Source: Chrysomallon squamiferum
Lineage: Eukaryota > Animalia > Mollusca
Assembly: GCA_012295275.1 (NCBI GenBank)
Contig: CM022665.1
Span: 186,001-250,000 of the forward strand
Direction of reading: 5' to 3'
Length of the DNA stretch: 64,000 nucleotides
The translations under genes and the position numbers were made by a program. The notes under the pieces were generated by a model. The model saw only the letters and a list, made by a program, of their open reading frames with translations. It had not been told where the DNA came from and ran no database searches. Below, one piece after another: positions 1 through 56,700 of this stretch (positions are counted from its first letter, which is position 1; each line of letters opens with the position of its first letter).

Positions 1-918
1 TGGTTGATTTTGTTTCTTTACTGCAAGTTTTCACTTTGACAAACTAATAAATATTTGTTGAGAAGACAATGAATACAACCGTATATGAAACTTTTAAAAC
101 TGCTGTGTTTAAAAGTCTTTGTGTTGTTAGTGATGGCCAACTGTTTCAACGAGAAGGTGAGAAAACCATTTTATAAAAATGATATACTTCTAAACCTTGT
201 TTAGAACTTTGTCCGTAACATATTTTGTAACTACTCATACGTACTCGTATTTTAATATCTAAAATCAAAACAGAAACATAAACTCATACCTTCAGTCGTG
301 AAAATAAAGTAAGAGCAATTTATATATGCTAATTATTACATACTTGGATAAATATATTGTTTGCAAATCATGTAGATAAGAATTATCAGTGTGTTCACAC
401 TATGTCACCATGACATCTCTGGTTGCAATGTCGTAATGTAAATCAAACTTAATTCTAGTGTAGCCTGACTGTTCGTTCCTCTAAATTTTAAACTACAAAG
501 ATGTATTGAAAGTTTGTATGTTGTTATTGATGTAAATGAAGTTTGTCATAAATATCAACAATTCAAAGGCGACATTCAGTGCTGACATTAAGGAGCTACA
601 TTCACATGTCACTGCTGTATTAATAAAACTGTAAGATATACATTTCCTATAAATTTAATAATTAAGATACATTTAAAGTTGTATACATTAGTTGAAAACA
701 AAACAAACAATTAAAAAGAAATCTTTAAAACTCCTCAAGTGAGACATCGTTCCAAAGCACGAATTTAGACAGTTGTGTTCTTCTTGAAAAGTTAATTGCT
801 GCTGAATTTACTGAACTAACAGTTTGATCTGAGATCATCAGTTTACAGATTACAACTTATCAACAAAATGCTGTGTACTTTCATTACAGCTGAGAAATCA
901 TAAAACCAACAAATTTAC

Positions 919-996
919 CTGAATCATGTAGGATGTTAATTTCTGATGCTCTTGCATAGGGGTTATTGAACAGGAACCTCTGTGTTAGTGTTTCTG
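919..996 (-). CDS. 78-nt phase-1 cassette exon, unit 1: (A)ETLTQRFLFNNPYARASEINILHDS
   Basis: Minus strand tttcatattacag|CAGAAAC...GATTCAG|gtaaat; open frame, length divisible by 3. Confidence 0.75.
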
Positions 997-2686
997 CTGT
1001 AATATGAAATTAAAAAAAAAATTTTAGTTTAACATCAGTCCAGTGTGCGTGCACCTACTTCCAGGAAGATTCTTTACCACTGTAACATAATACCACTAAC
1101 ATTTTATAGTTGTAAGTATTTTTCATAAATTTTTTGTTCGATATATTGAATTTGATAAAATATAAAATATATTAAAATTAATACAAATTTATATGACTTG
1201 TCTTTCTTTCTTTATCGGAGAAAGTCACTGACAAAGTTACTCAGTTCCTGAAGGAGACAATGAATTCCTTTGATATGAATTAATCCTGTGCAAAATAATT
1301 AAATACACTGTTGTCCAGGTTTCCACGAAATATTTTAGTCGGTTGTTTGAAGTAGAAGTTTCGGTTAATCAAACAGAGAAAGTGTAAACCAAAGACTATC
1401 ACAAAAAATATATATTACTGGTAATAGTAATTAATTAAAAACACTTTAAATGCCGATGCGAGTAAATAATTGTTGTTTAGCTTAAAATATCAAAGTAACA
1501 CCCGTTCATCAGAAACTACTTTGATTCATCTGAACTGCAAAAGACATTCAGGAAATAATTACGTATCTAAAGCCCAGCAGCCTTTGCTCTCCTTGAGAAA
1601 TTTCTCTTCTGATGGAAGTCCTACAGATGTAGTTTCAATAACGTAAATAAAGATAAACATTTCTAGCATTGTCAAGTATTACCAATGCCTTTATATGCCA
1701 GTAAAATTTATTTACAACTTTTCAGTAATATAAATCACTAAAACTAATACGAATGCTCCTATATATTTTGGTTGATTTTGTTTCTTTACTGCAAGTTTTC
1801 ACTTTGACAAACTAATAAATATTTGTTGAGAAGACAATGAATACAACCGTATATGAAACTTTTAAAACTGCTGTGTTTAAAAGTCTTTGTGTTGTTAGTG
1901 ATGGCCAACTGTTTCAACGAGAAGGTGAGAAAACCATTTTATAAAAATTATATACTTCTAAACCTTGTTTAGAACTTTGTCCGTAACATATTTTGTAACT
2001 ACTCATACGTACTCGTATTTTAATATCTAAAATCAAAACAGAAACATAAAGTCATACCTTCAGTCGTGAAAATAAAGTAAGAGCAATTTATATATGCTAA
2101 TTATTACATACTTGGATAAATATATTGTTTGCAAATCATGTAGATAAGAATTATCAGTGTGTTCACACTATGTCACCATGACATCTCTGGTTGCAATGTC
2201 GTAATGTAAATCAAACTTAATTCTAGTGTAGCCTGACTGTTCGTTCCTCTAAATTTTAAACTACAAAGATGTATTGAAAGTTTGTATGTTGTTGTTGATG
2301 TAAATGAAGTTTGTCATAAATATCAAGAATTCGCAGGCGATATTCAGTGCTGACATTAAGGAGCTACATCCACATGTCACTGCTGTATTAATAAAACTGT
2401 AAGATATACATTTCCTATAAATTTAATAATTAAGATACATTTAAAGTTGTATACATTAGTTGAAAACAAAACAAACAATTAAAAAGAAATCTTTAAAACT
2501 CCTCAAGTGAGACATCGTTCCAAAGCACGAATTTAGACAGTTGTGTTCTTCTTGAAAAGTTAATTGCTGCTGAATTTACTGAACTAACAGTTTGATCTGA
2601 GATCATCAGTTTATAGATTACAACTTATCAACAAAATGCTGTGTACTTTCATTACAGCTGAGAAATCATAAAACCAACAAATTTAC

Positions 2687-2764
2687 CTGAATCATGTGGG
2701 ATGTTAATTCCTGATGCTCTTGCATAGGGGTTATTGAACGGGAACATCTGTGTTAATCTTTCTG
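2687..2764 (-). CDS. 78-nt cassette exon, unit 2: (A)ERLTQMFPFNNPYARASGINIPHDS
   Basis: Same AG/GT boundaries, open frame. Confidence 0.75.
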
Positions 2765-4439
2765 CTGTAATATGAAATTAAAAAAAACATTTTAGTTTAA
2801 CATCAGTCCAGTGTGCGTGCACCTACTTCCAGGAAGACTCTTTGCCAATGTAACATAATACCACTAACATTTTATAGTTGTAAGTATTTTTCATAAATTT
2901 TTTGTTCGATATATTGAATTTGATAAAATATAAAATATATTAAAATTAATACAAATTTATATGACTTGTCTTTCTTTCTTTATCGGAGAAAGTCAGTGAC
3001 AAAGTTACTCAGTTCCTGAAGGAGACAATGAATTCCTTTGATATGAATTAATCCTGTGCAAAATAATTAAATACACTGTTGTCCAGGTTTCCACGAAATA
3101 TTTTAGTCGGTTGTTTGAAGTAGAAGTTTCGGTTAATCAAACAGAGAAAGTGTAAACCAAAGACTATCACAAAAAATATATATTACTGGTAATAGTAATT
3201 AATTAAAAACACTTTAAATGCCGATGCGAGTAAATAATTGTTGTTTAGCTTAAAATATCAAAGTAACACCCGTTCATCAGAAACTACTTTGATTCATCTT
3301 AACTGCAAAAGACATTCAGGAAATAATTACGTATCTAAAGCCCAGCAGCCTTTGCTCTCCTTGAGAAATTTCTCTTCTGATGGAAGTCCTACAGATGTAG
3401 TTTCAATAACGTAAATAAAGATAAACATTTCTAGCATTGTCAAGTATTACCAATGCCTTTATATGCCAGTAAAATTTACTTACAACTTTTCACTAATATA
3501 AATCACTAAAACTAATACGAATGCTCATATTTTCTTTCCTTACTGCAGGTTTTCACTTTGACAAACTGATAAAATTTGTCGCGAAGAAAATAAATACAAC
3601 CTTATATGAGACTTTTAAAACTGCTGTGTTTAAAAGTCTTTGAGTTGTTAGTGATGGCCAACTGTTTCAACGAGAAGGTGAGAAAACCATTTTATAAAAA
3701 TGATATACTTCTAAACCTTGTTTAGAACTTTGTCCGTAACATATTTTGTAACTACTCATACGTACTCGTACTTTAATATCTAAAATCAAAACAGAAACAT
3801 AAACTCATACCTTCAGTCGTGAAAATAAAGTAAGAGCAATTTATATATGCTAATTATTACATACTTGGATAAATATATTGTTTGCAAATCATGTAGATAA
3901 GAATTATCAGTGTGTTCACACTATGTCACCATGACATCTCTGGTTGCAATGTCGTAATGTAAATCAAACTTAATTCTAGTGTAGCCTGACTGTTCGTTCC
4001 TCTAAATTTTAAACTACAAAGATGTATTGAAAGTTTGTATGTTGTTGTTGATGTAAATGAAGTTTGTCATAAATATCAAGAATTCGCAGGCGATATTCAG
4101 TGCTGACATTAAGGAGCTACATCCACATGTAACTGCTGTATTAATAAAACTGTAAGATATACATTTCCTATAAATTTAATAATTAAGATACATTTAAAGT
4201 TGTATACATTAGTTGAAAACAAAACAAACAATTAAAAAGAAATCTTTAAAACTCCTCAAGGGAGACATCGTTCCAAAGCACGAATTTAGACAGTTGTGTT
4301 CTTCTTGAAAAGTTAATTGCTGCTGAATTTACTGAACTAACAGTTTGATCTGAGATCATCAGTTTATAGATTACAACTTATCAACAAAATGCTGTGTACT
4401 TTCATTACAGCTGAGAAATCATAAAACCAACAAATTTAC

Positions 4440-4517
4440 CTGAATCATGTGGGATGTTAATTCCTGATGCTCTTGCATAGGGGTTATTGAACGGGAACAT
4501 CTGTGTTAATCTTTCTG
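4440..4517 (-). CDS. 78-nt cassette exon, unit 3 (identical to unit 2)
   Basis: Same AG/GT boundaries, open frame. Confidence 0.75.
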
Positions 4518-6192
4518 CTGTAATATGAAATTAAAAAAAACATTTTAGTTTAACATCAGTCCAGTGTGCGTGCACCTACTTCCAGGAAGACTCTTTGCCA
4601 ATGTAACATAATACCACTAACATTTTATAGTTGTAAGTATTTTCATAAATTTTTTTGTTCGATATATTGAATTTGATAAAATATAAAATATATTAAAATT
4701 AATACAAATTTATATGACTTGTCTTTCTTTCTTTATCGGAGAAAGTCAGTGACAAAGTTACTCAGTTCCTGAAGGAGACAATGAATTCCTTTGATATGAA
4801 TTAATCCTGTGCAAAATAATTAAATACACTGTTGTCCAGGTTTCCACGAAATATTTTAGTCGGTTGTTTGAAGTAGAAGTTTCGGTTAATCAAACAGAGA
4901 AAGTGTAAACCAAAGACTATCACAAAAAATATATATTACTGGTAATAGTAATTAATTAAAAACACTTTAAATGCCGATGCGAGTAAATAATTGTTGTTTA
5001 GCTTAAAATATCAAAGTAACACCCGTTCATCAGAAACTACTTTGATTCATCTTAACTGCAAAAGACATTCAGGAAATAATTACGTATCTAAAGCCCAGCA
5101 GCCTTTGCTCTCCTTGAGAAATTTCTCTTCTGATGGAAGTCCTACAGATGTAGTTTCAATAACGTAAATAAAGATAAACATTTCTAGCATTGTCAAGTAT
5201 TACCAATGCCTTTATATGCCAGTAAAATTTACTTACAACTTTTCACTAATATAAATCACTAAAACTAATACGAATGCTCATATTTTCTTTCCTTACTGCA
5301 GGTTTTCACTTTGACAAACTGATAAAATTTGTCGCGAAGAAAATAAATACAACCTTATATGAGACTTTTAAAACTGCTGTGTTTAAAAGTCTTTGAGTTG
5401 TTAGTGATGGCCAACTGTTTCAACGAGAAGGTGAGAAAACCATTTTATAAAAATGATATACTTCTAAACCTTGTTTAGAACTTTGTCCGTAACATATTTT
5501 GTAACTACTCATACGTACTCGTACTTTAATATCTAAAATCAAAACAGAAACATAAACTCATACCTTCAGTCGTGAAAATAAAGTAAGAGCAATTTATATA
5601 TGCTAATTATTACATACTTGGATAAATATATTGTTTGCAAATCATGTAGATAAGAATTATCAGTGTGTTCACACTATGTCACCATGACATCTCTGGTTGC
5701 AATGTCGTAATGTAAATCAAAGTTAATTCTAGTGTAGCCTGACTGTTCGTTCCTCTGAAGTTTAAAGTACAAAGCTGTATTGAAAGTTTGTATGTTGTTA
5801 TTGATGTAAATGAAGTTTGTCATAAATATCAAGAATTCGCAGGCGATATTCAGTGCTGACATTAAGGAGCTTTATCCACATGTCACTGCTGTATTAATAA
5901 AACTGTAAGATATACATTTCCTATAAATTTAATAATTAAGATACATTTAAAGTTGTATACATTAGTTGAAAACAAAACAAACAATTAAAAAGAAATGTTT
6001 AAAACTCCTCAAGTGAGACATCGTTTCAAAGCACGAATTTAGATAGTTGTGTTCTTCTTGAAAAGTTAATTGCTGCTGAATTTACTGAACTAACAGTTTG
6101 TTCTGAGATCATCAGTTTATAGATTACAGCTTATCAACAAGATGCTGTGTGCTTTCATTACAGCTGAGAAATCATAAAACCAACAAATTTAC

Positions 6193-6270
6193 CTGAATGA
6201 ATTGTGGTGTCCATTGCTGATGCTCTTTCAGAGGTGTAATTTAACCTGAGTATATGTGCCATGGTTTTTG
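6193..6270 (-). CDS. 78-nt cassette exon, unit 4: (A)KTMAHILRLNYTSERASAMDTTIHS
   Basis: Same AG/GT boundaries, open frame, divergent type-B sequence. Confidence 0.75.
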
Positions 6271-7961
6271 CTGTAATATGAAATTAAAACAAAACATTTT
6301 AGTTTAACATCAGTCCAGTGTGCGTGCACCTACTTCCAGGAAGACTCTTTACCACTGTAACATAATACCACTAACATTTTATAGTTATAAGTATTTTTCA
6401 TAAATTTGTTGTTCGATATATTGAATTTGATAAAATATAAAATATATTAAAATTAATACAAATTTATATGACTTGTCTTTCTTTCTTTATCGGAGAAAGT
6501 CACTGACAAAGTTACTCAGTTTCTGAAGGAGACAACGAATTCCTTTGATATGAATTAATCCTGTGCAAAATAATTAAATACACTGTTGTCCAGGTTTCCA
6601 CGAAATATTTTAGTCGGTTGTTTGAAGTAGAAGTTTCGGTTAATCAAACAGAGAAAGTGTAAACCAAAGACTAACACAAAAAATATGTATTACTGTTATT
6701 AGTAATTAATTAAAAACTCTTTAAATGCCGATGCGAGTAAATAATTGTTGTTTAGCTTAAAATATCAAAGTAACACCCGTTCCCCAGAAACTACTTTGAT
6801 TCATCAGAACTGCAAAAGACATTCAGGAAATAATTACGTATCTAAAGCCCAGCAGCCTTTGCTCTCCTTGAGAAATTTCTCTTCTGATGGAAGTCCTACA
6901 GATGTAGTTTCAATAACGTAAATAAAGATAAACATTTCTAGCATTGTCAAGTATTACCAATGCCTTTATATGCCAGTAAAATTTACTTACAACTTTTCAG
7001 TAATATAAATCACTAAAACTAATACGAATGCTCATATATATTTTGGTTGATTTTGTTTCTTTACTGCAAGTTTTCACTTTGACAAACTAATAAACATTTT
7101 TTGAGAAGACAATGAATACAACCGAATATGAAACTTTTAAAACTGCTATGTTTAAAAGTCTTTGTGTTGTTAGTGATGGCCAACTGTTTCAACGAGAAGG
7201 TGAGAAAACCATTTTATAAAAATGATATACTTCTAAACCTTGTTTAGAACTTTGTCCGTAACATATTCTGTAACTACTCATACGTACTCGTATTTTAATA
7301 TCTAAAATCAAAACAGAAACATAAACTCATACCTTCAGTCGTGAAAATAAAGTAAGAGCAATTTATATATGCTAATTATTACATACTTGGATAAATATAT
7401 TGTTTGCAAATCATCTAGATAAGAATTATCAGTGTGTTCACACTATGTCACCATGACATCTCTGGTTGCAATGTCGTAATGTAAATCAAAGTTAATTCTA
7501 GTGTAGCCTGACTGTTCGTTCCTCTAAATTTTAAACTACAAAGATGTATTGAAAGTTTGTATGTTGTTATTGATGTAAATGAAGTTTGTCATAAATATCA
7601 AGAATTCGCAGGCGATATTCAGTGCTGACATTAAGGAGCTACATCCACATGTCACTGCTGTATTAATAAAACTGTAAGATATACATTTCCTATAAATTTA
7701 ATAATTAAGATACATTTAAAGTTGTATACATTAGTTGAAAACAAAACAAACAATTAAAAAGAAATGTTTAAAACTCCTCAAGTGAGACATCGTTTCAAAG
7801 CACGAATTTAGACAGTTGTGTTCTTCTTGAAAAGTTAATTGCTGCTGAATTTACTGAACTAACAGTTTGTTCTGAGATCATCAGTTTATAGATTACAGCT
7901 TATCAACAAGATGCTGTGTGCTTTCATTACAGCTGAGAAATCATAAAACCAACAAATTTAC

Positions 7962-8039
7962 CTGAATGAATTGTGGTGTCCATTGCTGATGCTCTTTCAG
8001 AGGTGTAATTTAACCTGAGTATATGTGCCATGGTTTCTG
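7962..8039 (-). CDS. 78-nt cassette exon, unit 5: (A)ETMAHILRLNYTSERASAMDTTIHS
   Basis: Same AG/GT boundaries, open frame. Confidence 0.75.
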
Positions 8040-9729
8040 CTGTAATATGAAATTAAAACAAAACATTTTAGTTTAACATCAGTCCAGTGTGCGTGCACCT
8101 ACTTCCAGGAAGACTCTTTACCACTGTAACATAATACCACTAACATTTTATAGTTATAAGTATTTTTCATAAATTTGTTGTTCGATATACTGAATTTGAT
8201 AAAATATAAAATATATTAAAATTAATACAAATTTATATGACTTGTCTTTCTTTCTTTATCGGAGAAAGTCACTGACAAAGTTACTCAGTTTCTGAAGGAG
8301 ACAACGAATTCCTTTGATATGAATTAATCCTGTGCAAAATAATTTAATACACTGTTGTCCAGCTTTCCAGGAAATATTTTAGTCGGTTGTTTGAAGTAGA
8401 AGTTTCGGTTAATCAAACAGAGAAAGTGTAAACCAAAGACTAACACAAAAAATATGTATTACTGTTATTAGTAATTAATTAAAAACTCTTTAAATGCCGA
8501 TGCGAGTAAAAATTGTTGTTTAGCTTAAAATATCAAAGTAACACCCGTTCCCCAGAAACTACTTTGATTCATCAGAACTGCAAAAGACATTCAGGAAATA
8601 ATTACGTATCTAAAGCCCAGCAGCCTTTGCTCTCCTTGAGAAATTTCTCTTCTGATGGAAGTCCTACAGATGTAGTTTCAATAACGTAAATAAAGATAAA
8701 CATTTCTAGCATTGTCAAGTATTACCAATGCCTTTATATGCCAGTAAAATTTACTTACAACTTTTCAGTAATATAAATCACTAAAACTAATACGAATGCT
8801 CATATATATTTTGGTTGATTTTGTTTCTTTACTGCAAGTTTTCACTTTGACAAACTAATAAACATTTTTTGAGAAGACAATGAATACAACCGAATATGAA
8901 ACTTTTAAAACTGCTGTGTTTAAAAGTCTTTGTGTTGTTGGTGATGGCCAACTGTTTCAACGAGAAGGTGAGAAAACCATTTTATAAAAATGATATACTT
9001 CTAAACCTTGTTTAGAACTTTGTCCGTAACATATTCTGTAACTACTCATACGTACTCGTATTTTAATATCTAAAATCAAAACAGAAACATAAACTCATAC
9101 CTTCAGTCGTGAAAATAAAGTAAGAGCAATTTATATATGCTAATTATTACATACTTGGATAAATATATTGTTTGCAAATCATCTAGATAAGAATTATCAG
9201 TGTGTTCACACTATGTCACCATGACATCTCTGGTTGCAATGTCGTAATGTAAATCAAAGTTAATTCTAGTGTAGCCTGACTGTTCGTTCCTCTACGTTTT
9301 AAACTACAAAGCTGTATTGAAAGTTTGTATGTTGTTATTGATGTAAATGAAGTTTGTCATAAATATCAAGAATTCGCAGGCGATATTCAGTGCTGACATT
9401 AAGGAGCTTTATCCACATGTCACTGCTGTATTAATAAAACTGTAAGATATACATTTCCTATAAATTTAATAATTAAGATACATTTAAAGTTGTATACATT
9501 AGTTGAAAACAAAACAAACAATTAAAAAGAAATGTTTAAAACTCCTCAAGTGAGACATCGTTTCAAAGCACGAATTTAGATAGTTGTGTTCTTCTTGAAA
9601 AGTTAATTGCTGCTGAATTTACTGAACTAACAGTTTGTTCTGAGATCATCAGTTTATAGATTACAGCTTATCAACAAGATGCTGTGTGCTTTCATTACAG
9701 CTGAGAAATCATAAAACCAACAAATTTAC

Positions 9730-9807
9730 CTGAATGAATTGTGGTGTCCATTGCTGATGCTCTTTCAGAGGTATCATTTAACCTGTGTATATGTGCCATG
9801 GTTTCTG
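9730..9807 (-). CDS. 78-nt cassette exon, unit 6: (A)ETMAHIHRLNDTSERASAMDTTIHS
   Basis: Same AG/GT boundaries, open frame. Confidence 0.75.
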
Positions 9808-11488
9808 CTGTAATATGAAATTAAAAAAAAACATTTTAGTTTAACATCAGTCCAGTGTGCGTGCACCTACTTCCAGGAAGACTCTTTACCACTGTAACAT
9901 AATACCACTAACATTTTATAGTTATAAGCATTTTTCATAAATATTTTGTTCGATATATTGAATTTGATAAAATATAAAATATATTAAAATTAATACAAAT
10001 TTATATGACTTGTCTTTCTTTCTTTATCGGAGAAAGTCACTGACAAAGTTACTCAGTTTCTGAAGGAGACAACGAATTCCTTTGATATGAATTAATCCTG
10101 TGCAAAATAATTTAATACACTGTTGTCCAGCTTTCCAGGAAATATTTTAGTCGGTTGTTTGAAGTAGAAGTTTCGGTTAATCAAACAGAGAAAGTGTAAA
10201 CCAAAGACTAACACAAAAAATATGTATTACTGGTATTAGTAATTAATTAAAAACTCTTTAAATGCCGATGCGAGTAAATAATTGTTGTTTAGCTTAAAAT
10301 ATCAAAGTAACACCCGTTCCCCAGAAACTACTTTGATTCATCAGAACTGCAAAAGACATTCAGGAAATAATTACGTATCTAAAGCCCAGCAGCCTTTGCT
10401 CTCCTTGAGAAATTTCTCTTCTGATGGAAGTCCTACAGATGTAGTTTCAATAACGTAAATAAAGATAAACATTTCTAGCATTGTCAAGTATTACCAATGC
10501 CTTTATATGCCAGTAAAATTTACTTACAACTTTTCAGTAATATAAATCACTAAAACTAATACGAATGCTCATATATATTTTGGTTGATTTTGTTTCTTTA
10601 CTGCAAGTTTTCACTTTGACAAACTAATAAACATTTTTTTGAGAAGACAATGAATACAACCGAATATGAAACTTTTAAAACTGCTGTGTTTAAAAGTCTT
10701 TGTGTTGTTAGTGATGGCCAACTGTTTCAACGAGAAGGTGAGAAAACCATTTTATAAAAATGATATACTTCTAAACCTTGTTTTGTAAACATATTTTGTA
10801 ACTACTCATACGTACTCGTATTTTAATATCTAAAATCAAAACAGAAACATAAACTCATACCTTCAGTCGTGAAAATAAAGTAAGAGCAATTTATATATGC
10901 TAATTATTACATACTTGGATAAATATATTGTTTGCAAATCATCTAGATAAGAATTATCAGTGTGTTCACACTATGTCACCATGACATCTCTGGTTGCAAT
11001 GTCGTAATGTAAATCAAAGTTAATTCTAGTGTAGCCTGACTGTTCGTTCCTCTGAAGTTTAAAGTACAAAGCTGTATTGAAAGTTTGTATGTTGTTATTG
11101 ATGTAAATGAAGTTTGTCATAAATATCAACAGTTCAAAGGCGATATTCAGTGCTGACATTAAGCAGCTACATCCACATGTCACTGCTGTATTAATAAAAC
11201 TGTAAGATATACATTTCCTATAAATTTAATAATTAAGATACATTTAAGTTGCAGACATTAGTTGAAAACAAAACAAACAATTAAAAAGAAATGTTTAAAA
11301 CTCCTCAAGTGAGACATCGTTCCAAAGCACGAATTTAGACAGTTATGATGTTGTTGAAAAGTTAATTGGTGCTGAATTTACTGAACTAACAGTTTGTTCT
11401 GAGATCATCAGTTTATAGATTACAGCTTATCAACAAAATGCTGTGTACTTTCATTACAGCTGAGAAATTATAAAACCAACAAATTTAC

Positions 11489-11566
11489 CTGAATGATGTG
11501 GGATGTTAATTCCTGATGCTCTTGCATAGGGGGTATTGAACGGGAACATCTGTGTAAATGTTTCTC
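11489..11566 (-). CDS. 78-nt cassette exon, unit 7: (G)ETFTQMFPFNTPYARASGINIPHHS
   Basis: tttcatcttacag|GAG...TTCAG|gtaaat; open frame. Confidence 0.75.
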
Positions 11567-11794
11567 CTGTAAGATGAAATTAAAAACAAACATTTTAAAA
11601 ACAAACAAATTAATCAGAAACTCTTTAAATGCCGATGAATTTTGACAGTTGTGTTCTTCTTGAAAAGTTAATTGCTGCTGAATTTACTGAACTAACATTT
11701 TGTCCTGAGATCATCAGTTTATAGATTACAACTTATCAACAAAATTCTGTGTACTTTCATTAGAGGTCAGAAATCATAAAACTAAGAGATTTAC

Positions 11795-11878
11795 CTCTGA
11801 AACTTGTGTTTAGCGAGTGTTGTGGGTTGTTGTTGTTAAAGTTTGATAATGCCATTTCCCTCAGTTGATCTCTTTGTT
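11795..11878 (-). CDS. 84-nt phase-1 exon of the same family: EQRDQLREMALSNFNNNNPQHSLNTSFR
   Basis: Same acceptor context tttcatattacag and donor gtaaat; open, 84 nt, in frame with the 78-nt exons. Confidence 0.65.
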
Positions 11879-13285
11879 CTGTAATATGAAATTGATATGA
11901 ACATTTTATACTTGACATCAGTCGATTGTCGGTAACCCTATTTCATAAATTTTCTGTTTGATATCTTGAATTTGATAAAATATAAAAGATATTAAAATTA
12001 ATACAAATTTATATGACCTGTCTTTCTTTCTTTATTTGAAGTAGAATTTTCGGTTTTAGAAAAGAACGAAATAACAAGGAAATATTTTATAATGTAAATC
12101 TAATAATTTTAAATGTTTGTCATAAAACTTACTCTACAAACGCCTTTTATTGTAAACGATATTCAGACAATCTAAGGACAGAAACAGGTGAATATTTCTG
12201 AGTCTTTGTAACAAATACAAAAAAGGTTCTTTCTCTATTATATGAAAATAATAAAATATGTTAAAATGTAATTATTATTTCAAACACTGGTCATGTTATC
12301 AAATTCTTTAGCTAAATCCAAGGTCTACCCGCGTAAAACGAAGGAGAGAAAGAACATAATGTTAGCATCATAAATTTAATAATTTTAAATATTTCTCTTC
12401 ACACTTACTCTGTGGGCGACATAAACGGGTCAGTATTTGTGACCTTTTCGTTGTGTCTCGTAACAAATATAAAAGAAGGTCTTTTTTTTTGTTGTTTTTA
12501 TCTGTTATCTGGATATGGTAAAACAGGAAACTGTTATTAGTTTGTTTATACTCGTACCTGTATTCCTAATGAAATTATTTCTGTAAAGAACAGCACAGAC
12601 ACTTTAAAAATAGACAAGAAAATGTAATGGGTCATATCTACGTCGCAGCGATCACGTGACTCAAAGTGCGTGTACAAAGTTCTATAAATAAACTTGGCAA
12701 CCTTCTAGAAAATGAACTGCTATTGAGTGTGTGTATATGTGTGTGTGTGTGTGTGTCATTTTATTTTTTAATGTATTTATTTATTTATAATCTGTTGAAT
12801 ACATTGTATTTTATTCTAGTAGAAGTTAACTACATGTTATTGATATGACAACTAGGTACATTATTTACACGGCAAACGTTTTTCAAAACTAACTTCCTAT
12901 ATTTTCTGCCTTAATAAGATCAACTCGGATTTGAACACACATTTACATGTTGTTATTATAATATTAATTTTATGTTTATTACTTTAACTCACTCTTCATA
13001 AATCTAGAAACACTTTCTGATAGAGAAACATAAATATTTGTAACATTTTCACGTACCTTATTCTCAGTGGATTAATGTGCAACGTATAAAATATAATAAT
13101 ATTAAAATATATTACTTTAATTAAAATACAAATACACTAATCTTTATTTATATTACAACTATTGTGGTTTATTTTCTTTGAATACTCTTGCGATCAAACA
13201 GGAGTCAATTTTGGGGAAAAAAGAAATAATAAAAACAATAAAAATAACGAAATAAAAAAAAGTTAAAAATAAATAAGACGAATAA

Positions 13286-13344
<59 letters not shown>

Positions 13345-17545: not shown

Positions 17546-18406
17546 AGAAACAGACAACAAAACATTTACTGGTTATCTCTACATTATAATGATCACGTGA
17601 CTCAAATTACGTGTACAAAGGTGATATAAATAAACTTGGTAACCTTCCAGAAATCTAACTGCTATTGAGAATAATCTCATAACTTAGGCTATAACCATTT
17701 TTTATTTTATTTTATTTTGTTTCATTTGATATTATTTATTTATTTGTTTCTTCTTTTATGTTTTCTTTTCTTTTCTTTTCTTTTATTTGTTTCGTTATTG
17801 CTTTATGTGTATATTTTATTTATTTTTTATGTATTTTTTCCTTTATGTGTTTTATTCCTTTATTTTTTCTGCATTTTTATTTATTTATTTATTTATTATT
17901 TTATTTATTTTGCAGAGTACAATATATTCTATTGTCAATGTGCAGTCATAATCCTAAACTAGAATACTTTTTTAATAAGTCGGATTTAATTATCTGCAAA
18001 CATTATGCTGCAGTGCAAAGTTAACATTATACTGAGTAGTAAATAATTATATGCACTGTTCTCAAACGTTCCAGGAAATATTTTCGTCCGCAAACGTTTG
18101 AGTTTCACAAAAACAAACACAAAAAAACTGAAACGCGGAAATATTTTATAATTTTAGCTACACAAAGCTAATAATTTTAAATATTTGTGTTAGACTTATT
18201 CTATTCGCTCGTAACTATAATTAAAAACGATACTGAAGAAGTCTAAAAATGGATCAGTATTTGTAACCTTTTCGTTGTCGCTCCTAACAATTAGAAAAGA
18301 AGTCCGTTTTCTCTCTTTTCTGACGATAGCAACAATTTAATGTGTAAAAATACTGGCTTATTATTGAACCTTTTAAAATTAAATCCAGTGTCTACGCATC
18401 TTTTAC

Positions 18407-23556: not shown

Positions 23557-23756
23557 NNNNNNNNNNNNNNNNNNNNNNNNNNNNNNNNNNNNNNNNNNNN
23601 NNNNNNNNNNNNNNNNNNNNNNNNNNNNNNNNNNNNNNNNNNNNNNNNNNNNNNNNNNNNNNNNNNNNNNNNNNNNNNNNNNNNNNNNNNNNNNNNNNNN
23701 NNNNNNNNNNNNNNNNNNNNNNNNNNNNNNNNNNNNNNNNNNNNNNNNNNNNNNNN
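23557..23756. other. Assembly gap (200 N)
   Basis: Run of N. Confidence 1.
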
Positions 23757-35975: not shown

Positions 35976-37229
35976 ATGAATTAAAACATATAAATAAACA
36001 AATAAAATAATAATAAAAAGAGGATGTGGCCTAACTTATGAGATTATTATCAACTGCAGTTCAAGAAGGTTGCCAAGTTTATTTATAGAATTTTGTACAT
36101 GCACTTTGTGTCACGTGATCGCTACTACGTAGATGCGACCCATTACGTTTGGTTGTCTATTTGTAATGTGTCTGTGCTGTTCTTTACAGAAATAATTTCA
36201 TTAGGAATACAGGTACCTGTATAAACAAATTAATAACAGTTTCCCGTTTTACCATATCCAGATAACAGATAAAAACAACAACAAAAAAGACCTTTTATAT
36301 TTGTTACGAGACACAATATAAAGGTTACAAATACTGACCCGTTTATGTCGCCCACTTTTTGAATATCTTTCTCAGTAATTGTTAGGAGGGCACAGAGTAA
36401 GTGTGAAGAGAAATATTTAAAATTATTAAATTTATGATGCTAACATTATGTTCTTTCTCTCCTTCGTTCTACGCACGTAGACCTTGGATTTAGCTAATGA
36501 ATTTAATAACATGACCAGTTTTTGAAATAATAATTGCATTTTAACATATTTTATTATTTTCATATAATAGAGAACCAACCTTTTTGTATTTGTTACAAAC
36601 AACAACCAAAGGGTCAGAAATATTCACCTGTTTCTGTCCTTAGATTTTCTGAATATCGTTTATAATAAAAGGAGTTTGTAGAGCAAGTTTTATGACAAAC
36701 ATTTAAAATTATTAGATTTACATTATAAAATATTCCCTTGTTATTTCCTTCTTTTCTGAAACCGAAACTTCTACTTCAAACAACCGACTAAAATATTTCC
36801 TGGACAGCTAGATAACAGTGTATTTAATTATTTTGCACAGAATTAATTTATATCAAAGGACTCCGTTGTCGTCTTGAGGAATTGAGTAACCTTGTCAGTG
36901 ACTTTCTCCGGTAAAGAAAGAAAGACAAGTCATATAAATTTGTATTAATTTTAATATCTTTTATATTTTATCAAATTCAAGATATCGAACAGAAAATTTA
37001 TGAAAAATACTTACAGCTATAATTTGTCAGTGGTAATATGTTACAGTGGTAAAGAGTCTTTCTGGACATTGGGTTACCCACAATCGACTGATGTCAAGTA
37101 TAAAATGGTTATATCAATTTCATATTACTGAACAAAGAGATCAACTGAGTGAAATGGCATTATCAAAGTTTGGCTACGACCAGCACCTCACTGCAGCACC
37201 ACTACCATTTATAAGTCAAGTTATTCAGG

Positions 37230-38520
37230 TAAATGTGTTAGTTTAAAGATTTCTCAGCTGTAATGAAAAAACACACTTTTTTTTTCATAAGTTCTAATTT
37301 ATAAACTGAATGATATCAGATCAAACTCTTATTTCAGTAAACTCACCAGCAATTAAGCTTTTAACAAGAACATAACTGTCTAATTCGTGCTTTGGAACGA
37401 TGTCTCGCTTGACGATCTCTGCTACTTTAAATGTATTTTAATTACACACACATAATATTAAATTTATAGGAAATGTGTATCGTACAGTTGTTGTTTATTC
37501 AGTGACATGTGGATGTAGCTGCTTAATGTCAGCACTGAATATCGCCTTTGAATTGTTGATATTTATGACAAACTTCATTTACATCAATAACAATATACAA
37601 ACTTTCAATACAGCTTTGTACTTTAAAATTTAGCAGAACGCACAGTCAGGCTACGCTAGAATTAAGTTTGATTTACATTACGATATTGCAGCCAGAGATG
37701 TCATGGTAACATACTGTAATCACACTGATAATTCTTATCTACATGATTTGCAACCAGTGTATTTATCCAAGTATGTAATAATTAACACATATAAATCCCT
37801 GTTACTTTTCTTTCACGACCGAAGGTATGAGTTTATTTTTCTGTTTTGATTTTACGTATTAAAATACGACTACGTATGAGTAGTTACAAAATAGGTTATG
37901 GACAAAGTTCTAAAAAACGTTTAGAAGCATATCATTTTTATAAAATGGTTTTCTCACCTTCTCGTTGAAACATTTAGTTATCTGTCATTAACAACACAAA
38001 GACTTTTAAACACAGCAGTTTTAACAGTCTCTTATACGGTTGTATTCATTGTCTTCTCATCAAATGTTTATTAGTTTGTCAAAGTGACAACTTGCAGTAA
38101 AGAAACAAAATCAACCAAAATATATATGAGCATTCGTATTAGTGTTAGTGATTTATATTACTGAAATGTTGTAAATAAATTTTACTGGCATATAAAGGCA
38201 TTGGTAATACTTGACAATGCTAGAAATGTTTATCTTTATTTACGTTATGGAAACTACATCTGTAGGACTTCCATCAGAAGAGGAATTTCTCAAGGAGAGC
38301 AAAGGCTGCTGGGCTTTAGATACGTAATTATTTCCTGAATGTCTTTTGCAGTTATGATGAATCAACGTAGTTTCTGGTGAACGGGTTTTACTTTGATATT
38401 TTAAGCTAAACTCTCATTATTTACTTGCATCGGCATTTAAAGAGTTTTTAATTAATTACTAATACCAGTAATACATATTTTTAGTATTTTTCTTTGTTTT
38501 ATACTTTCTCTATTTGATTG
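37230..38520 (+). repeat. Inverted, diverged copy of most of the 1.77-kb array unit (more diverged partial copies at ~38830-40930)
   Basis: Reverse complement of unit sequence, e.g. 38100-38470 vs unit junction and 1420-1780. Confidence 0.9.
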
Positions 38521-39082
38521 ATAGAGTCTGGAAAATGTGAACTTATATATATAAATTGTTTAAGTAATAACATTATCTGTACTTAATATATAAGAAAGAA
38601 ATGCCTACTGAAAACAGTTTCATAGACATCAGGGTTTGAATGTTAAACACAGAATTATCACTCTTCGTCACAGCGGTAAAAAAAAAACTTATAGTAATCA
38701 GTGATTATGTATAGCTCCGATTTTCGGTAATAACAACTAGAACAAATCAAGAATAAGTTCATATCTATTAATAAGATGACAAAAAATGCATCACAGGTAC
38801 AATTCATTTCGAACGAATCCATTGTCTGTTTGAATAATTTTTTAACGTTGTCAGTGACATAATCCCATAAAGAAAGAAAGACTAGTCACATAAGTTTGCA
38901 TTAATTTGAATATCTTGTATATTTCATCAGATCCAAGATATCAAACAAAAAAATGTGTGAATAATACTTACAGCTATAAAATGTCAGTGGTACATTGGTA
39001 GAGAGTCTACCTGGAAGCAAGTTCACACAAACTGGACTGATGTTAAGTTTAAAATGTGTTTTTTGTTAATTTCATATTACAG

Positions 39083-39118
39083 CACCAGTACAAAGCAAAG
39101 GATTATCACCTTATCAAG
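39083..39118 (+). CDS. Candidate 36-nt phase-1 exon PVQSKGLSPYQ, positional homologue of the 78-nt cassette
   Basis: tttcatattacag|CACC...CAAG|gtaaag; open. Confidence 0.45.
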
Positions 39119-40048
39119 GTAAAGTCCGAAGTAATTTAGATAAATTTAATGATTTCTCAGATCTAATGAAAGTACACAGAATTTTGTTGATAAATTATAA
39201 TTTATAACATGATGATATTAGAACAAACTGTTAGTTCAGTAAATTTAGCAGCAATCAACTTTTTAATAAGAACATAACTGTCTACTTCGTGCTTTGGAAC
39301 GATGTCTCACTTGAGGAGTTTTACAGATTTCTTTTTCATTGTCTATTTTGTTTTCAAGTGAACTCAGATACCTTAAATGTATGTTAATTATACATTCACA
39401 TGTTTCGAAATTTATAGGTAATGTATATCCTACAGTTTTATTAATTCAGCAGTGACATGTGGATGTAGCTGCTTAATGTCAGCACTGAATATCGCCTTTG
39501 AATAGTTTATATTTATGACAAGCTTCATTTACATCAATAATAATATACAAACTTTCAGTACAGCTTTTTAGTTTACAATTTAGCAGAACGCGCAATCAGA
39601 CTACACTAGAATTAACTTTGATTTACATTACAACATTGCAAACACAGACGTCATAGTGACAGACTGAACAGATAATTCTTATCTACATGATACCAAATAC
39701 TTCAGATATAGACTTCTACTAAATTTATCTAAGTATATTTTTGTTACAAAGTAGTTTTCTCATGTTTTCAGTGAAACATTGTGAAACACAAAGACATTGA
39801 AATGCAGCTGTTTTAAAAGTCTCATATAGGTTGTATTCATTGTCTTCTCAAGAAATGTTTATCAGGTTGTCAAAGTGAAAACTTCCAGTAAAGAAAGAAA
39901 ATCAACCAAAACAAATACGAGCATTCATATTAGTTTTAGCGACTTATTTTAGTGAAAATTTGTAAATAATCTTTAGTGCGATAAAAAGCCAGGAATATTA
40001 CTCGACAATGCCAGATATGTTTATCTTTATTTATGACTGAAATTACAG

Positions 40049-40132
40049 ATGTAATAGAAGAAGCACAGAAGAGTCAGTTGACGGAGAAGTTTTGTTACAA
40101 ATCAGAAACAGTGAAAGACAAGTGTAATTCAG
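40049..40132 (+). CDS. Candidate 84-nt phase-1 exon DVIEEAQKSQLTEKFCYKSETVKDKCNS
   Basis: aattacag|AT...TCAG|gtacat; open. Confidence 0.5.
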
Positions 40133-40322
40133 GTACATAATTATTTGTTAACTTTCTTTTCTAGGTGTTATAAAACAACGTATTATTACTCAACAGCAGC
40201 AGAAATGTTTATATTTATTTATGTTGCTGAAATTATAGATCTAAGAGAGGAATCGATGAAGAGTCAATGAAGATTGTTGTAAATTGTTATCACCATCACC
40301 ATCATCATCATCATTTTTATTA

Positions 40323-40364
<42 letters not shown>

Positions 40365-40833
40365 TTGGTTTGTTGTTTTACCAACAGCAAATGTGTCTAA
40401 ATTTCCATCTTAATGTTGCATTTGATCATAAGTGCCAAACTCTCCTAAAAGGAGTTCGGCAATAAAATACTGACATTTTGTAATCTGAGTAGCTTATAGG
40501 ACCCTATCACGTGTATCTTTTAATATATTTTATGTTTTATCAGATTCAAGATATGAAACAGAAAATCGAGTGATATAAATTTGATTCATAAAATATGCAT
40601 ACGTATTAATTTTAATATCTTCTATAGTTTATCAGATTCAAGAAAAATTGAAAGATTAAAGTTCGCAAGGCAAGACAAGAAAATCAACCAATACAATTAT
40701 CTGCTGTCATATTAATTTTAGTGACTTTTTTTAGTGAAAATTTGTATATAGTTTTTAGTGCCGTAAAACGCCAGTAATATTACTCGACAGCAGCAGAAAT
40801 GTTTATCTTTATGTATTTTACTGTAAATTGCAG

Positions 40834-41702: not shown

Positions 41703-43396
41703 TTGTTTATAAGAACCCAATTTTGATAGTCCCACTTTACAGCAATATATTAGGGGATTTAAAATTTAGTATTTTACAATTAAATCTTTCTTTATTTGTT
41801 TGTTTGTTTGTTTATTTATTTATTTATTTATTTATTTATTCATTTATTTACTGTTAAAGATTTGAGAAGTGATGAGAGACAACAGTTGAGAAGTGACGAG
41901 AGACAACAGTTGAGAAGTGATGAGAGAGAACAGCTGAGAAGTGATGAGACAGAACAGCTGAGAAGTGATGAGACAGAACAGCTGAGAAGTGATGAGAGAG
42001 AACAGCTGAGAAGTGATGAGACAGAACAGCTGAGAAGTGATGAGACAGAACAGTTGAGAAGTGATGAGACAGCTGCTGGATACTACTTCACTGGGACTGT
42101 TGATCGCGTTGAGTGCTTCAGCTGTGGTCAGAGCTATGATCACTGGAGACCTGAAGATAACCCAAGCTGCAGATTTGTCCTGGGAGAGGAAGGAAATGAA
42201 CCGATTCGGGTAAGTGAGAATGTTGAGCAGAGACTACAAGAATTCCTGGGCAGATTAATTGTCAGTTCAGTGTTGAAATCTTCTACTATTCATAGTGAAA
42301 CACTTCGTAATCGGTGCGAGTCTGAAAGTTCAGTTAGAGACAATGAACTGTTTGGAGTCTCTGAAACATCTGCTGTTAACACCAGTGATATGGCTACAAA
42401 TACTGTTTCACTTCCTGATAATGCTACAGTTCCTTCTTTTACTGGTGAGAGTTCTGTCAGTGGTGGTGCTGTTGCCTCTAATGATTCTCATCAAAGTTCT
42501 TCACAGCTCAGTCTCAGTAATTTACCAATCCTTCAGCTGTCCGCTTTTATGTCTGGAAGCTCCTCTACATCAGCCCCGACACTGCATGCACCACGTCACC
42601 CCGAGTACGTCGACGTACAAAGACGTATTTCGTCTTTTCAATACCAATGGCCACATCCTGACAACCAGTCTCCGTCAATGCTCGCAGAAGCCGGTTTTTT
42701 CTTCTCTGGTTAGTGTTACTGCTGCTTAATTACAAATCTTCACATTTTAATAATAATACTAATTTCACTGGTAAATTAAAACACTTGATATTTTAATAGT
42801 CACTGGAATGTTCGGACATTTTAAGCCATTTGAAATCTTTGACATTATATAGTCATTTAAAGTGTTTGACGTTTCAGTAGACATTTGAAATGTTCAATAT
42901 TTTAATAATCATAGAATCTTTGACATTTTAATAGTGAAATAAAATTTGTGTGTATGTTGATGTCAGATGAAATGTATACATTTATGAACAAGCTCATTCA
43001 TGTATAAACAGGCAATTCATGTGATAGCACGTCCTGCTTTTACTGCGGCGGAGGACTTAGAAATTGGACGCAGGGAGATAACCCTTACGTGGAACACGCC
43101 AGATGGTTTCCACGATGCGATTTCATCAGACAGGTGAAGGGAGACAGTTTTGTTGATTTGGTTCAAGAAATGAATGAAAATGAAGAGGAGGTAATTAGCT
43201 GATATTTTTAGCTTTACCATGAAATTATTAAACTTTTGTATAAATATGTGTAGTTGTGTTTACACTAGGAATTCACCAGTTTCTTAAATTTAATTTACAT
43301 TTTCTAATCTTTTCTCTCTGTTTATTGCTGTTTTTATTGTTTGTTTTTATTTATTTATTTAAATTAGTTTGAAATTTGTATTATATTAATTTGTTT

Positions 43397-43441
<45 letters not shown>

Positions 43442-44036
43442 AAAATATGTCGTTAATGTTTTTAAATTTATTTTAGATTGACTATAACCAAGTGATGGAT
43501 ATTTTAAATGATTGTCGACCTACGTTTGAACGTCTTGGAATTAAAACACGTCAAGGTAACATTAACAAAATTCTAGATTTACCAACAAGATTCTATAGAT
43601 TGCACAATTTCACAAATTAATGTCAAGATAAAATTATTTAATAGTTTACATCCCACAAAAGTATCGTTTTAAATGAGATCACGTCAGTAGTACTAATATT
43701 ATAAATATTTTTTTTCATTTTGTTCGCATAGTTGATAAATTCGTTGTTTCTGAAGAAAACAGTGGCGAATGTAATGAAACAACAAGAAACACAGAACTTG
43801 CAACTGCAGGTATAGTGCAGTTTTATTTCACTACATTTTGTTTGTTTATTTGTTTGTTTGCTTGTTATTATTGTTTATATTATTGTTATTGTTAGTTATT
43901 ATTAATATTGTTGTGTTATCATTACTGCTGTATTTTGTCTTGTTATCGTTTTTATTGTTACTATATTATTAATATTACTAGTATTATATTTTACTCGTTT
44001 ATTATTTATTTATTATGAATGTTATTGTAGTCATTG

Positions 44037-44105
<69 letters not shown>

Positions 44106-54359: not shown

Positions 54360-56700
54360 TACAAAACTGTAATCTAATCTTCTAAAAAAAAAAAAAGGAA
54401 AAATAAAAAAGGAAGAAGAAGAAAAGAAAAAGGAACCTCAGTAACAAGAAAAAAGAACATTCTGATGTAGAAAAAGTGTAACAGAAAATAATTATCATTT
54501 GATCGTCTCGGTTATACTTTTAAATTTAAACTTTAGTCAATTTAAAAAAGATGAAGTAGAGTGGAAATTTAATAACTTATTATTATTAATTCTTTGTTAA
54601 ATAAGTAAAAGGAAAAAAGAAAACAATAAAAAAAAAATAATGAGTCTGTACGCTGTGCCAGTCTATAACTTAGAAGACTTAGATTTGCAACCCCGAAAGA
54701 TGAAATCAAGTTTTCAGTCAAAAGTCAATTTAGAAATATTACTAATGTAAATAAAAGCATAAGTTCATCTTCATCTGTATTTAAGAAAAAAAAAAAAGAA
54801 GTAAATATAAATAAATAAATAAATAATGTTTGCGCCTACGTCAACTTTTACTAGAATAAAATATAATGTACTCAGGTAAATAAACAAATAAATAAATAAA
54901 TAAATAAATAAAAAATAAGTTAAATTAAATTAAATTAAACTAAATTAAACTAAACTAAATTAAATTAAATTATGTTTGTTGCCTAGATTATGATATTTTT
55001 CTTACTAGCGGTTCAAAGTCGCCAAGTTTATTTATATCACTTTGTACACGTAATTTCAGTCACGTGATCGTTACGACATAGAAACGACCCAGATTGTTGT
55101 CTTTTTTCTAATGTATCGAAGTGTCTGAGCTGTTCTTTACGGAAATAATTTGATTCGGAATTTAGGTAAGTTTACAACAAATTTAATAACGGTTTTATAT
55201 ATCTAGTAAGTTACGAGAGTATTCTCAATAGCAGTTAGATTTCTGGAATGTTAACATGTTTATTTATATCACTTTTGTACATGTAATTTGAGAACCTGAT
55301 CGTTACGAGGTCGAAACAACCCGTATACATTGTGTTGTGTATCTTTTTAATATATCCAAGAGTTTGAGCTGTTCTTTACAGAAACAATGTTACTAGGAAT
55401 TTAAGTAAGTTTATAAATATTTTAACAACAGTTTTGTCTATCTAATAATATATGCCTGTAAATATATATTTATTTCGGTAGATAGATTTATGTTTTTTTG
55501 GAAATGTATGAAACTGATTTTAACATTACCTCCTTGTTTACGTTGTGTAAATGTTCACAGCTAATAACGAAGCTTTTCTCGTCGATTTTATTCGATTCAG
55601 TGAGTGACGTAAAACATTCGATTGTATAGGTAATAGGCACGTAGAACTTGGATTTAGTTAATAGTTTAATAACATGACCTGTGTTTGAAATATTAATTAG
55701 GTTTTAACATATATTATTATATTCAGATAATTTGTTACAAACAATAGCTGAAGGTCATAAATTTTGACCCGTTTCTGTTGAATATCATTTTTATTAATAG
55801 GAGTTTATAGCGTAAGTGCTAAGGCAAATATTTAAAATTATTAAATTTATGTTGCTAACTTTATAACATATTTACGTGTTATTTCTTTCTTTTCTGAAAC
55901 CGAAACCTCTGTTGCTTACAACGGACTAAAATATTTCCGGGATTTAATTCATTTGAAAGGAACCCATCTTCTCCTACAGGAATTTTCTGAGCTTGTTAGT
56001 CTCCGATAAATAAAGAAAGACGAGTCAGATAAATTTGTATTCATTTGAATATCTTTTACTTTTTATCAGATTTTAGATCTCAAACATAAAATTTGTGAAT
56101 AATATTTACAGCTATAAAATGTCATAGTAGTATTCTACAATGCTAAACAGGCCAGCTGGAAATAGGGTGACCAAGGCTCCAGTGATGTTAATTCTAAAAT
56201 GTTTATTTTAATTTCATATTACAGAAGTAGAGATCTAAAAGATAAACAGACGAAAATGGGAATGTCAAACTGTCCGTGGACGCTGCACTACAGTACAAAG
56301 TCACCAAAAGTGAAAAACACAGGAGATTCATCTAGAGGTAAATTTTTTAGTTTAATGTTTTCTTAACTGTGATGAAAGAACACAGTTTTGTTTGATAAGT
56401 TGTAATTTATAAACTGAATGTTATCAGATTAAACTGGTAGTAAGTTCAGCAGCAATTTACTTTTGAATAAGAACATAACTGTCTAATTCTACTCTGGAAG
56501 GATGTCTCACTTGAGGACGGTTATCTCGTAATTTTAGTAGCTCACACGACCCTACCACGCGTGTCTTTTAATAAACATACAAACATCACCATCTTGAACG
56601 TTTTATTAATTAGTGAGTATGTATTATGTGTCTTTGTTGCTTCCTTATTCACAAATGTATCATGAAGAGTTATCTCAGAACTTCATTAATGTCCTGGTCC
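54360..56700 (+). pseudogene. Third, compact and degenerate copy of the 5' module/micro-exon region
   Basis: Matches ~27930-28410 and ~31480-32180. ATG exon 55248-55282, micro-exon 55382-55404, 48-nt exon with TGA, 113-nt cassette-type exon 56225-56337 (frame broken), then sequence matching 41100-41270. Confidence 0.6.

Follow-up and report, generated by a model that had tools for sequence, protein, structure and literature searches.

In a 64,000-nucleotide (nt) stretch of the genome of the mollusc Chrysomallon squamiferum (assembly GCA_012295275.1, contig CM022665.1, positions 186,001 to 250,000; hereafter the window, with positions counted from its first letter), we found a head-to-tail array of exon-plus-intron units on the minus strand, each with a 78-nt block that very probably represents a predicted coding cassette exon at the 5' end of an orphan gene. 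This reading is based on the splice signals around the blocks, a shared frame that continues that of an upstream ATG, a contrast in GC content with the introns, and a junction in one contig from an RNA library. Between the two types of cassette, exon divergence is about ten times intron divergence. The explanation that we favour, and consider on balance probable, is that these phase-1/phase-1 exons, likely chained as 26-residue modules, have multiplied with the growth of the array and diverged under selection. The start exon that sets the frame of the cassettes (11795-11878) and the start-exon/cassette joint in an RNA library are new relative to a first-pass annotation of the same DNA. The coordinates of all features are collected in Table 1.

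Direct-repeat families with 6-8 copies, spaced 1753-1770 bp from start to start, run from base 1 of the window, so that the array is cut by the left edge; the downstream part of the gene lies beyond it. When the units were aligned with MAFFT, a check proposed in the first-pass annotation, variability was concentrated in one block at columns 921-1000, where two 40-column bins held 28 variable columns, against 0-3 in most other bins. The corresponding blocks are 78 nt long in 7/7 units and belong either to type A, found in units 1, 2, 3 and 7, or to type B, found in units 4 to 6, giving the order A, B B B, A A A in the direction of the gene. On the minus strand, the acceptor side of every block consists of a T-rich pyrimidine tract and TTACAG (TTTCATATTACAG directly before the block in 6/7 units, TTTCATCTTACAG in unit 7), and the donor side reads GTAAAT, with GTAAATTTGTTG directly after 7/7 blocks. 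Frame 2 (2 nt, 25 codons and 1 nt; phase 1-1) is open in 7/7 cassettes, whereas frame 0 contains a stop in 6/7 and frame 1 in 7/7. The GC content is 0.40-0.42 in the exons versus 0.296 in the introns. The uniform length, symmetric phase and absence of stops described in the first-pass annotation were thus reproduced in all seven copies, as were the AG/GT-type boundaries.

Upstream of the cassettes lies an 84-nt start exon with a 23-nt leader, an ATG at 11853-11855, and 20 codons plus 1 nt (MALSNFNNNNPQHSLNTSFR, then a final G); its flanks are homologous to the unit intron. The ATG puts the reading in phase 1, the one phase in which 7/7 cassettes are open. Joining the ATG exon and the seven cassettes by script gave 202 codons with 0 stops, in agreement with the earlier claim that the cassettes concatenate in frame. 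The introns between the seven cassettes measure 1675-1691 nt. In the conceptual 202 N-terminal residues, A, S, N and T are abundant, C, W and V are absent, and four N-x-S/T sites occur. As a crude signal-peptide test, Kyte-Doolittle hydropathy was averaged over 9 residues; its maximum within the first 40 residues is 0.07, and thus this part has no hydrophobic stretch. Because it has neither a hydrophobic N-terminus nor cysteine, the product appears unlike a classically secreted peptide. Further upstream, at 12130-12415 on the minus strand, two similar AGA/GTAAGT donor-like sites (the slash marking the exon end) lie about 270 nt apart, each followed by a similar aaatatttaaaattatta(a/g)attta sequence; they are candidate duplicated ends of an exon in the 5' untranslated region (5'UTR).

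Between types A and B, 23-26 of the 78 exon nt differ (29.5-33.3%), whereas the remaining ~1.68 kb of the unit differs at 2.2-3.6%. This exon excess was found in 9/9 A-B pairs (Fisher p 2e-14 to 2e-19). Units 2 and 5, which the first-pass annotation had compared, differ at 23/78 nt and 19/26 residues with 0 indels, exactly as counted there. Its statement that divergence stops at the splice sites also holds: the differences are confined to alignment columns 926-991 of an exon spanning columns 920-997, and in fact cease 6 nt inside either exon edge, while the closest differences beyond the exon lie at distances of 42 and 20 columns on its two sides. Within types, the exons of units 1 and 2 differ at 6/78 nt versus 1.0% in the introns (p 3.5e-4), with the 5 replacement changes and 1 silent change reported before, and those of units 5 and 6 at 3/78 nt versus 0.83% (p 0.036). 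Units 2 and 3 have identical exons. The two introns flanking the unit 3 exon are both 15 nt shorter and both carry a 16-site patch, common to units 3 and 4 only, which covers columns 2-123 (window 3522-3650 and 5275-5400) and amounts to 16 differences (~13%) and a 1-nt indel. The patch resembles a tract of gene conversion, or else an older haplotype that the last unit duplication brought along. The flanking ~1.7 kb had been described as differing only at scattered bases, which is correct for its low overall divergence but not for this patch. Seventeen intron sites (columns 449-1582) split the units as the exon types do. Transitions and transversions between units 2 and 5 number 6:17 in the exon and 15:22 in the intron; the two ratios look unlike, but we base no conclusion on them.

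Nei-Gojobori estimates between types gave a nonsynonymous divergence (dN) of 0.48-0.52 versus a synonymous divergence (dS) of 0.09-0.17. Between units 2 and 5, 19/25 codons are replaced and 0 carry only a silent change, with 10:7:6 changes at the three codon positions, whereas the other two frames hold 3 and 2 silent-only codons; the 7 shared codons, in which no synonymous change had been noted, are identical at the nucleotide level. In simulations of 23 random substitutions that kept the transition and transversion numbers of this pair, at least 19 codons were replaced with a probability of 0.002-0.0035. Within types, 13 replacement and 2 silent changes were counted. These sequence comparisons suggest selection for amino-acid replacement between the cassettes, and the significance of dN above dS is marginal. 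Of the diversifying selection put forward in the first-pass annotation, the replacement excess stands, but not statistical proof of a dN/dS above 1. The pattern by which accelerated evolution is recognised, coding divergence above intron divergence together with a replacement excess, is present in the array.

Inverted, diverged copies of the unit occur on the plus strand of the window (Table 1), and the inserts between their conserved acceptor and donor contexts differ widely, as seen in blocks of 98, 36 and 113 nt. The 98-nt block resembles a start exon and has probably decayed, because its acceptor is mutated to TG and its donor is in phase 0. Splice-proximal intron sequence is kept even in copies that are only 72% identical overall. 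In the start exons of the array and of the 37-kb copy, the leader (5'UTR) and the first six codons are near-identical and the flanks align well, and between the sixth codon and the donor the two exons cannot be aligned. The hypervariable part therefore tracks the coding sequence and not the splice sites as such.

Nine sequencing runs of a single organism were found, two of them metatranscriptomic RNA libraries, in the form of assembled (Logan) contigs, and the contigs of four runs (DNA runs X1 and X2, RNA runs X4 and X8) were mapped on window 1-13300. One X4 contig fits the window up to 4519, 2 bases beyond the edge of the unit 3 cassette, and then continues with 31 further letters. Their 30-letter consensus equals 56306-56335 on the opposite strand at 29/30 letters, its single occurrence in the window, with 0 expected by chance. 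The matched segment is the last part of the 113-nt exon at 56 kb, with 2 nt left between it and the GT donor at 56338. Since the 2 overlapping bases are both the AG that ends the 56-kb exon and the acceptor AG of the cassette, the contig reads as a canonical joint between a start exon and a type A cassette in phase 1. Given the opposite strand of the 56-kb exon, its distance of 52 kb and the 1/30 mismatch, the contig must derive from yet another, paralogous locus. Another X4 contig combines the conserved head of the start exon, in which it fits the array as far as 11829, with a variable part that agrees with 37181-37210 at 27/30 letters, and thus a third start-exon variant is present in the RNA library. 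Some stretches of the array are not covered by RNA contigs, to which we attach no meaning because variants are lost in contigs. Of the mapped DNA contigs, 262/426 in X1 and 106/248 in X2 are 90-95% alike. Two loose contig ends, in X8 at 4518 and in X1 at 11567, had no match in the window at up to 3 mismatches; they may represent further cassette types with the same intron, and were not counted. Translated by hand, the X1 piece has one open frame and the X8 piece two. In both DNA runs, contig depth rises about tenfold at window 12877-13300 (3862 and 495, with roughly 100-660 and 10-116 in the neighbouring bins), which suggests a high-copy repeat beside the array, summed contig depth being no measure of copy number.

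Searches for related sequences returned little. Pfam gave 0 families for two cassette peptides at E up to 1, queries of only 25 amino acids (aa) with low power, and 0 families for the 113-nt exon; Rfam gave 0 matches on window 1-13000. A profile of six 41-aa stop-to-stop open reading frames (ORFs) around cassettes, composed of 5 intron-coded, 25 exon and 11 intron-coded residues, had one match among 1.84 billion representative proteins. This match, a repetitive 3928-aa protein, was judged spurious, as it covered profile positions 21-39, which are mostly intron-encoded. The 66-aa ORF around the 56-kb start exon had no protein match, and in metagenome scans neither the pattern of the exon flanks nor a 23-mer conserved in the intron gave a match.

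In the explanation we favour, the cassettes would likely be read serially as 26-residue modules at the N-terminus of a non-secreted orphan protein. The array would have grown by unequal crossing-over or replication slippage between its long, near-identical introns, and growth through intron exchange would leave runs of identical or near-identical cassettes, as in the order observed here. Expansion by unequal crossover had been proposed in the first-pass annotation, and array growth by unit duplication is well supported by the identical exons of units 2 and 3 and the common intron haplotype of units 3 and 4. The modules would have been driven apart mainly by selection for amino-acid replacement, with gene conversion that keeps the introns alike probably sharpening the contrast between exon and intron. 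The whole small family would behave alike, the coding parts of its start exons being unalignable and the 5'UTR, the first six codons and the introns alike. Our best guess, made with low confidence, is that the cassette region is a disordered, fast-evolving interaction or decoy region.

Several observations weigh against this explanation. The exons of units 4 and 5 show no excess (1/78 nt versus 1.8% in the introns), and the patch in the introns of units 3 and 4 means that patchy divergence occurs outside the exons too. The same simulations gave a probability of 0.06-0.08 that no silent-only codon would arise, the number of synonymous differences between types is only 1.5-2.5, and the A-B difference is essentially one deep branch. 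Exon dS is higher than intron divergence, as expected if the introns were homogenised rather than the exons accelerated. The RNA joint comes from one assembled metatranscriptomic contig, and from another locus than the array. Intron sequence is found in the RNA libraries as well, with depth in 21/30 bins for X4 and 22/30 for X8, and so DNA or pre-mRNA is present in them. Among 15 of the 37 joints, none came from an RNA run, none linked two cassettes and none skipped one, so that we infer the chaining of cassettes. Finally, no homologue of the cassette protein was found to lean on.

The strongest alternative, which we nonetheless hold to be unlikely, is that A and B are ancient paralogous exon types and that the contrast stems mainly from the introns, held 97-99% alike by ongoing gene conversion and unequal exchange (concerted evolution), and not from faster evolution of the exons. 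Diverged exon cores would block heteroduplex extension, and homogenisation would reach right up to these cores. Such a history agrees with an exon dS several times the intron divergence of 0.022-0.036, with intron haplotypes that form a mosaic untied to exon type (site partitions abbaaa 20, aabbaa 16 and aaabbb 17), with the conversion-like patch in units 3 and 4, and with the conservation of splice-proximal intron sequence in the 72%-identical copies. Some homogenisation of introns by conversion thus fits the dS values, and does not exclude selection. However, neutral or purifying evolution predicts a dS at least equal to dN, whereas the observed dN is about 3-5 times dS, and silent change is absent from the 7 shared codons. 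The exon excess is also found within types, between units 1 and 2, and the hypervariability of the start exons begins after codon 6, inside the exon and not at the splice site.

We regard it as more doubtful still that the array is a library of alternative exons, of which one or few would be included in each mRNA, either mutually exclusively or with free skipping, to generate isoform diversity. Cassettes of 78 nt in phase 1-1 would preserve the frame in any subset, and the sole joint from an RNA library connects a start exon directly to a type A cassette. Exclusivity would however not be enforced, as double inclusion keeps the frame and introns of 1675-1691 nt impose no steric block, and a unit contains no strong inverted repeats that could act as docking and selector pairs (the best are 16-30 nt with 70-88% complementarity). 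Identical neighbours such as units 2 and 3 would add nothing to a library of isoforms, and no skipping joint was present among the 15 of 37.

A more far-reaching idea, to which we give little credence, is that the array is a germ-line store of a fast-diversifying region that acts inside the cell in recognition or as a decoy, and that is joined to, or evolves together with, an expanded cluster of BIR-RING (IAP) cell-death genes, with targeted mutation or conversion of the exons and the introns as a homology scaffold for shuffling. If true, it would be an invertebrate counterpart of cassette-based immune diversification. Least probable of all is a non-coding origin, as a long satellite or mobile-element-derived repeat with an exon-like patch by chance and an RNA contig that is DNA of a rearranged copy: the 90-95%-alike DNA contigs do indicate diverged copies elsewhere, intron sequence does occur in the RNA libraries and no protein homologue was found, but one of three frames is open in all seven copies and is the frame of the upstream ATG, the splice signals show no flaw, GC is 10 points higher in the exons than in the introns, the joint falls exactly at GT and AG with 2 common nt, which an assembly artefact of repeats would not give, and silent-only changes are absent from the coding frame and present in the other two.

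With chained, selection-driven modules as the favoured reading, the locus joins a known class in which each exon encodes one repeat and exons evolve faster than introns; it does not represent a new principle. In snake-venom PLA2 genes, coding sequence outpaces the adjoining introns. Conotoxin genes, like the array, have coding sequence that outruns the adjoining introns and untranslated regions, and replacement changes are in excess (PMC3862624). Both toxin families comprise separate paralogous genes for secreted cysteine-rich peptides, whereas in the array it is the exons of a single gene that diverge, and its 202 residues include 0 cysteines. The micro-exon genes (MEGs) of schistosomes have symmetric exons of 3-81 bp and are reported to show accelerated protein evolution (PMC4350168, bioRxiv 10.1101/2023.06.21.545858), and the array family shares with them short symmetric exons (78 and 36 bp here) between long introns. 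MEG products are secreted, unlike a product without a hydrophobic N-terminus, the exons within a MEG do not stem from one tandemly copied unit whose introns are cloned as well, and the profile search of 1.84 billion representatives found no sequence relation of the cassettes to MEG proteins. The analogy with venom and MEG genes drawn in the first-pass annotation therefore extends to the faster exons and the short symmetric exons, but not to secretion or cysteine content.

The brown alga Ectocarpus offers a further parallel. The LRR exons of its ROCO genes, 72 nt long, and the TPR exons of its NB-ARC-TPR genes each encode one repeat, and its receptor genes show exon shuffling and diversifying selection on the repeats (Zambounis et al. 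2012, PMC3341825). In both systems, a short repeat (24 aa in Ectocarpus, 26 aa in the array) corresponds to one exon, whose length is constant across a repetitive series of introns and exons; recent duplicates vary in exon number and sequence, and copies in reverse orientation occur nearby. Unlike those of Ectocarpus, the cassettes match no LRR or TPR model (as 25-aa queries of low power), the inverted copies lie 25-45 kb away and not inside introns, the introns are 1.7 kb long and 97-99% identical, and no downstream signalling domain is visible in the window. Arthropod Dscam has tandem clusters of mutually exclusive exons (PMC3364881, PMC3236188). The array resembles it in having equal-length, homologous tandem exons in one gene, but no feature for one-at-a-time inclusion was found (78-nt exons in frame, 1675-1691-nt introns, weak inverted repeats), and the exons are only 78 nt long without a recognisable domain. 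To our knowledge, the introns of Dscam are not near-identical.

If the cassettes are expressed as we infer, the 1.7-kb intron, copied at least seven times, provides a neutral yardstick for each exon, and selection, conversion and unequal crossing-over could therefore be separated within one gene. This would be an unusually clean natural experiment, and would add an orphan, non-secreted repeat protein to the few genes whose exons outrun their introns, namely those of venom peptides, schistosome MEGs and the LRR/TPR receptors of brown algae. The locus, which lies within a cluster of IAP-type genes, is a candidate for long-read cDNA sequencing and population resequencing.

Table 1. Positions in the window of the predicted array, its diverged copies and the neighbouring BIR-RING genes.
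Feature	Position	Strand	Details
Tandem array of exon-plus-intron units	1..12036	minus	unit spacing 1753-1770 bp, head-to-tail
Predicted cassette exon, unit 1	919..996	minus	type A variant; ETLTQRFLFNNPYARASEINILHDS
Predicted cassette exon, unit 2	2687..2764	minus	type A; ERLTQMFPFNNPYARASGINIPHDS
Predicted cassette exon, unit 3	4440..4517	minus	type A, equal to unit 2 exon; fit of RNA-library contig ends here
Predicted cassette exon, unit 4	6193..6270	minus	type B; KTMAHILRLNYTSERASAMDTTIHS
Predicted cassette exon, unit 5	7962..8039	minus	type B; ETMAHILRLNYTSERASAMDTTIHS
Predicted cassette exon, unit 6	9730..9807	minus	type B; ETMAHIHRLNDTSERASAMDTTIHS
Predicted cassette exon, unit 7	11489..11566	minus	first in gene order, type A variant; ETFTQMFPFNTPYARASGINIPHHS
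Predicted first intron, 228 nt	11567..11794	minus	internally deleted version of the 1.69-kb unit intron
Predicted start exon, 84 nt	11795..11878	minus	acceptor ttacAG 11879-11880, donor GTAAAT from 11794
Inverted, diverged unit copies	36760..40826	plus	36760-38519 at 83-93% identity, 38792-39691 at 79%, pieces up to 40826
Start-exon-like block, 98 nt	37131-37228	plus	ATG at 37154; acceptor mutated to TG, donor phase 0
AG/GT-bounded block, 36 nt	39083-39118	plus	
Inverted partial unit	55898..56517	plus	72% identical; holds the 113-nt start exon
Predicted start exon, 113 nt	56225-56337	plus	begins its coding part with an ATG; MGMSNCPWTLHYSTKSPKVKNTGDSSR, then a final G; GT donor from 56338; splice-site contexts as in the array
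BIR-RING (IAP-type) gene	41784-44492	plus	BIR in 41784-42713 (3.7e-14), second half of BIR in 43008-43199 (1.4e-12), RING in 44307-44492 (2.3e-12)
BIR-RING (IAP-type) gene	61722-64000	minus	BIR pieces in 63317-64000 and 62791-63141 (1.4e-13), RING in 61722-61868 (3.4e-9)

Within the window, BIR and RING exons occur in the neighbouring genes only. The minus-strand BIR-RING gene crosses the right edge of the window, and the Ser-rich linker exons of the two genes are clearly paralogous, with a common ETLRNR... stretch. Bilaterian RING-IAPs are described as having a C-terminal BIR that is split and upstream BIRs that each occupy a single exon (PMC13159474). The IAP-type family is known to be expanded in molluscs. 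Searched with the ORF of the BIR linker, longer proteins gave 0 matches, and those of near length gave a single weak one, a BIR protein with 27% identity. Local alignment of the cassettes with the large BIR-linker exons gave scores that were reached by 288/300 and 236/300 shuffles; a TIHSETL likeness between a cassette junction and a large BIR-linker exon is accordingly attributed to chance. A phase-1 acceptor before the plus-strand BIR exon was ruled out, as the site reads TTTACTG and not TTTACAG. In the long plus-strand ORF of this gene, a 24-nt minisatellite at 41863-42072 (8.8 copies, 95% matches) lies in frame, encodes LRSDE(T/R)(E/Q)Q repeats and runs straight into a BIR that starts at profile position 25. 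This BIR may be truncated, or its first half may have been replaced.

The window DNA is clearly eukaryotic; it is AT-rich (GC 0.24-0.33 per 2-kb bin), has many microsatellites and contains a single gap of 200 N at 23557-23756. Two low-complexity ORFs, at 17695-18024 (plus) and 32560-32907 (minus), have the same last 37 residues (CRVQYILLSMCSHNPKLEYFFNKSDLIICKHYAAVQS) and form an inverted repeat about 14.5 kb apart that brackets the gap; they might mark where a mobile element ends on either side, or else stem from the assembly. A 139-nt tandem repeat with 6.6 copies and 98% matches occupies 46704-47624; before it, at 46629-46696, a 30-nt repeat falls within ORFs that contain GTSR(I/T)DR(K/N)ET(I/N)NS repeats. 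In the interior of the window, at 48704-48766, lies a degenerate, telomere-like CTAAACCTAACC repeat of 5.2 copies with 66% matches.

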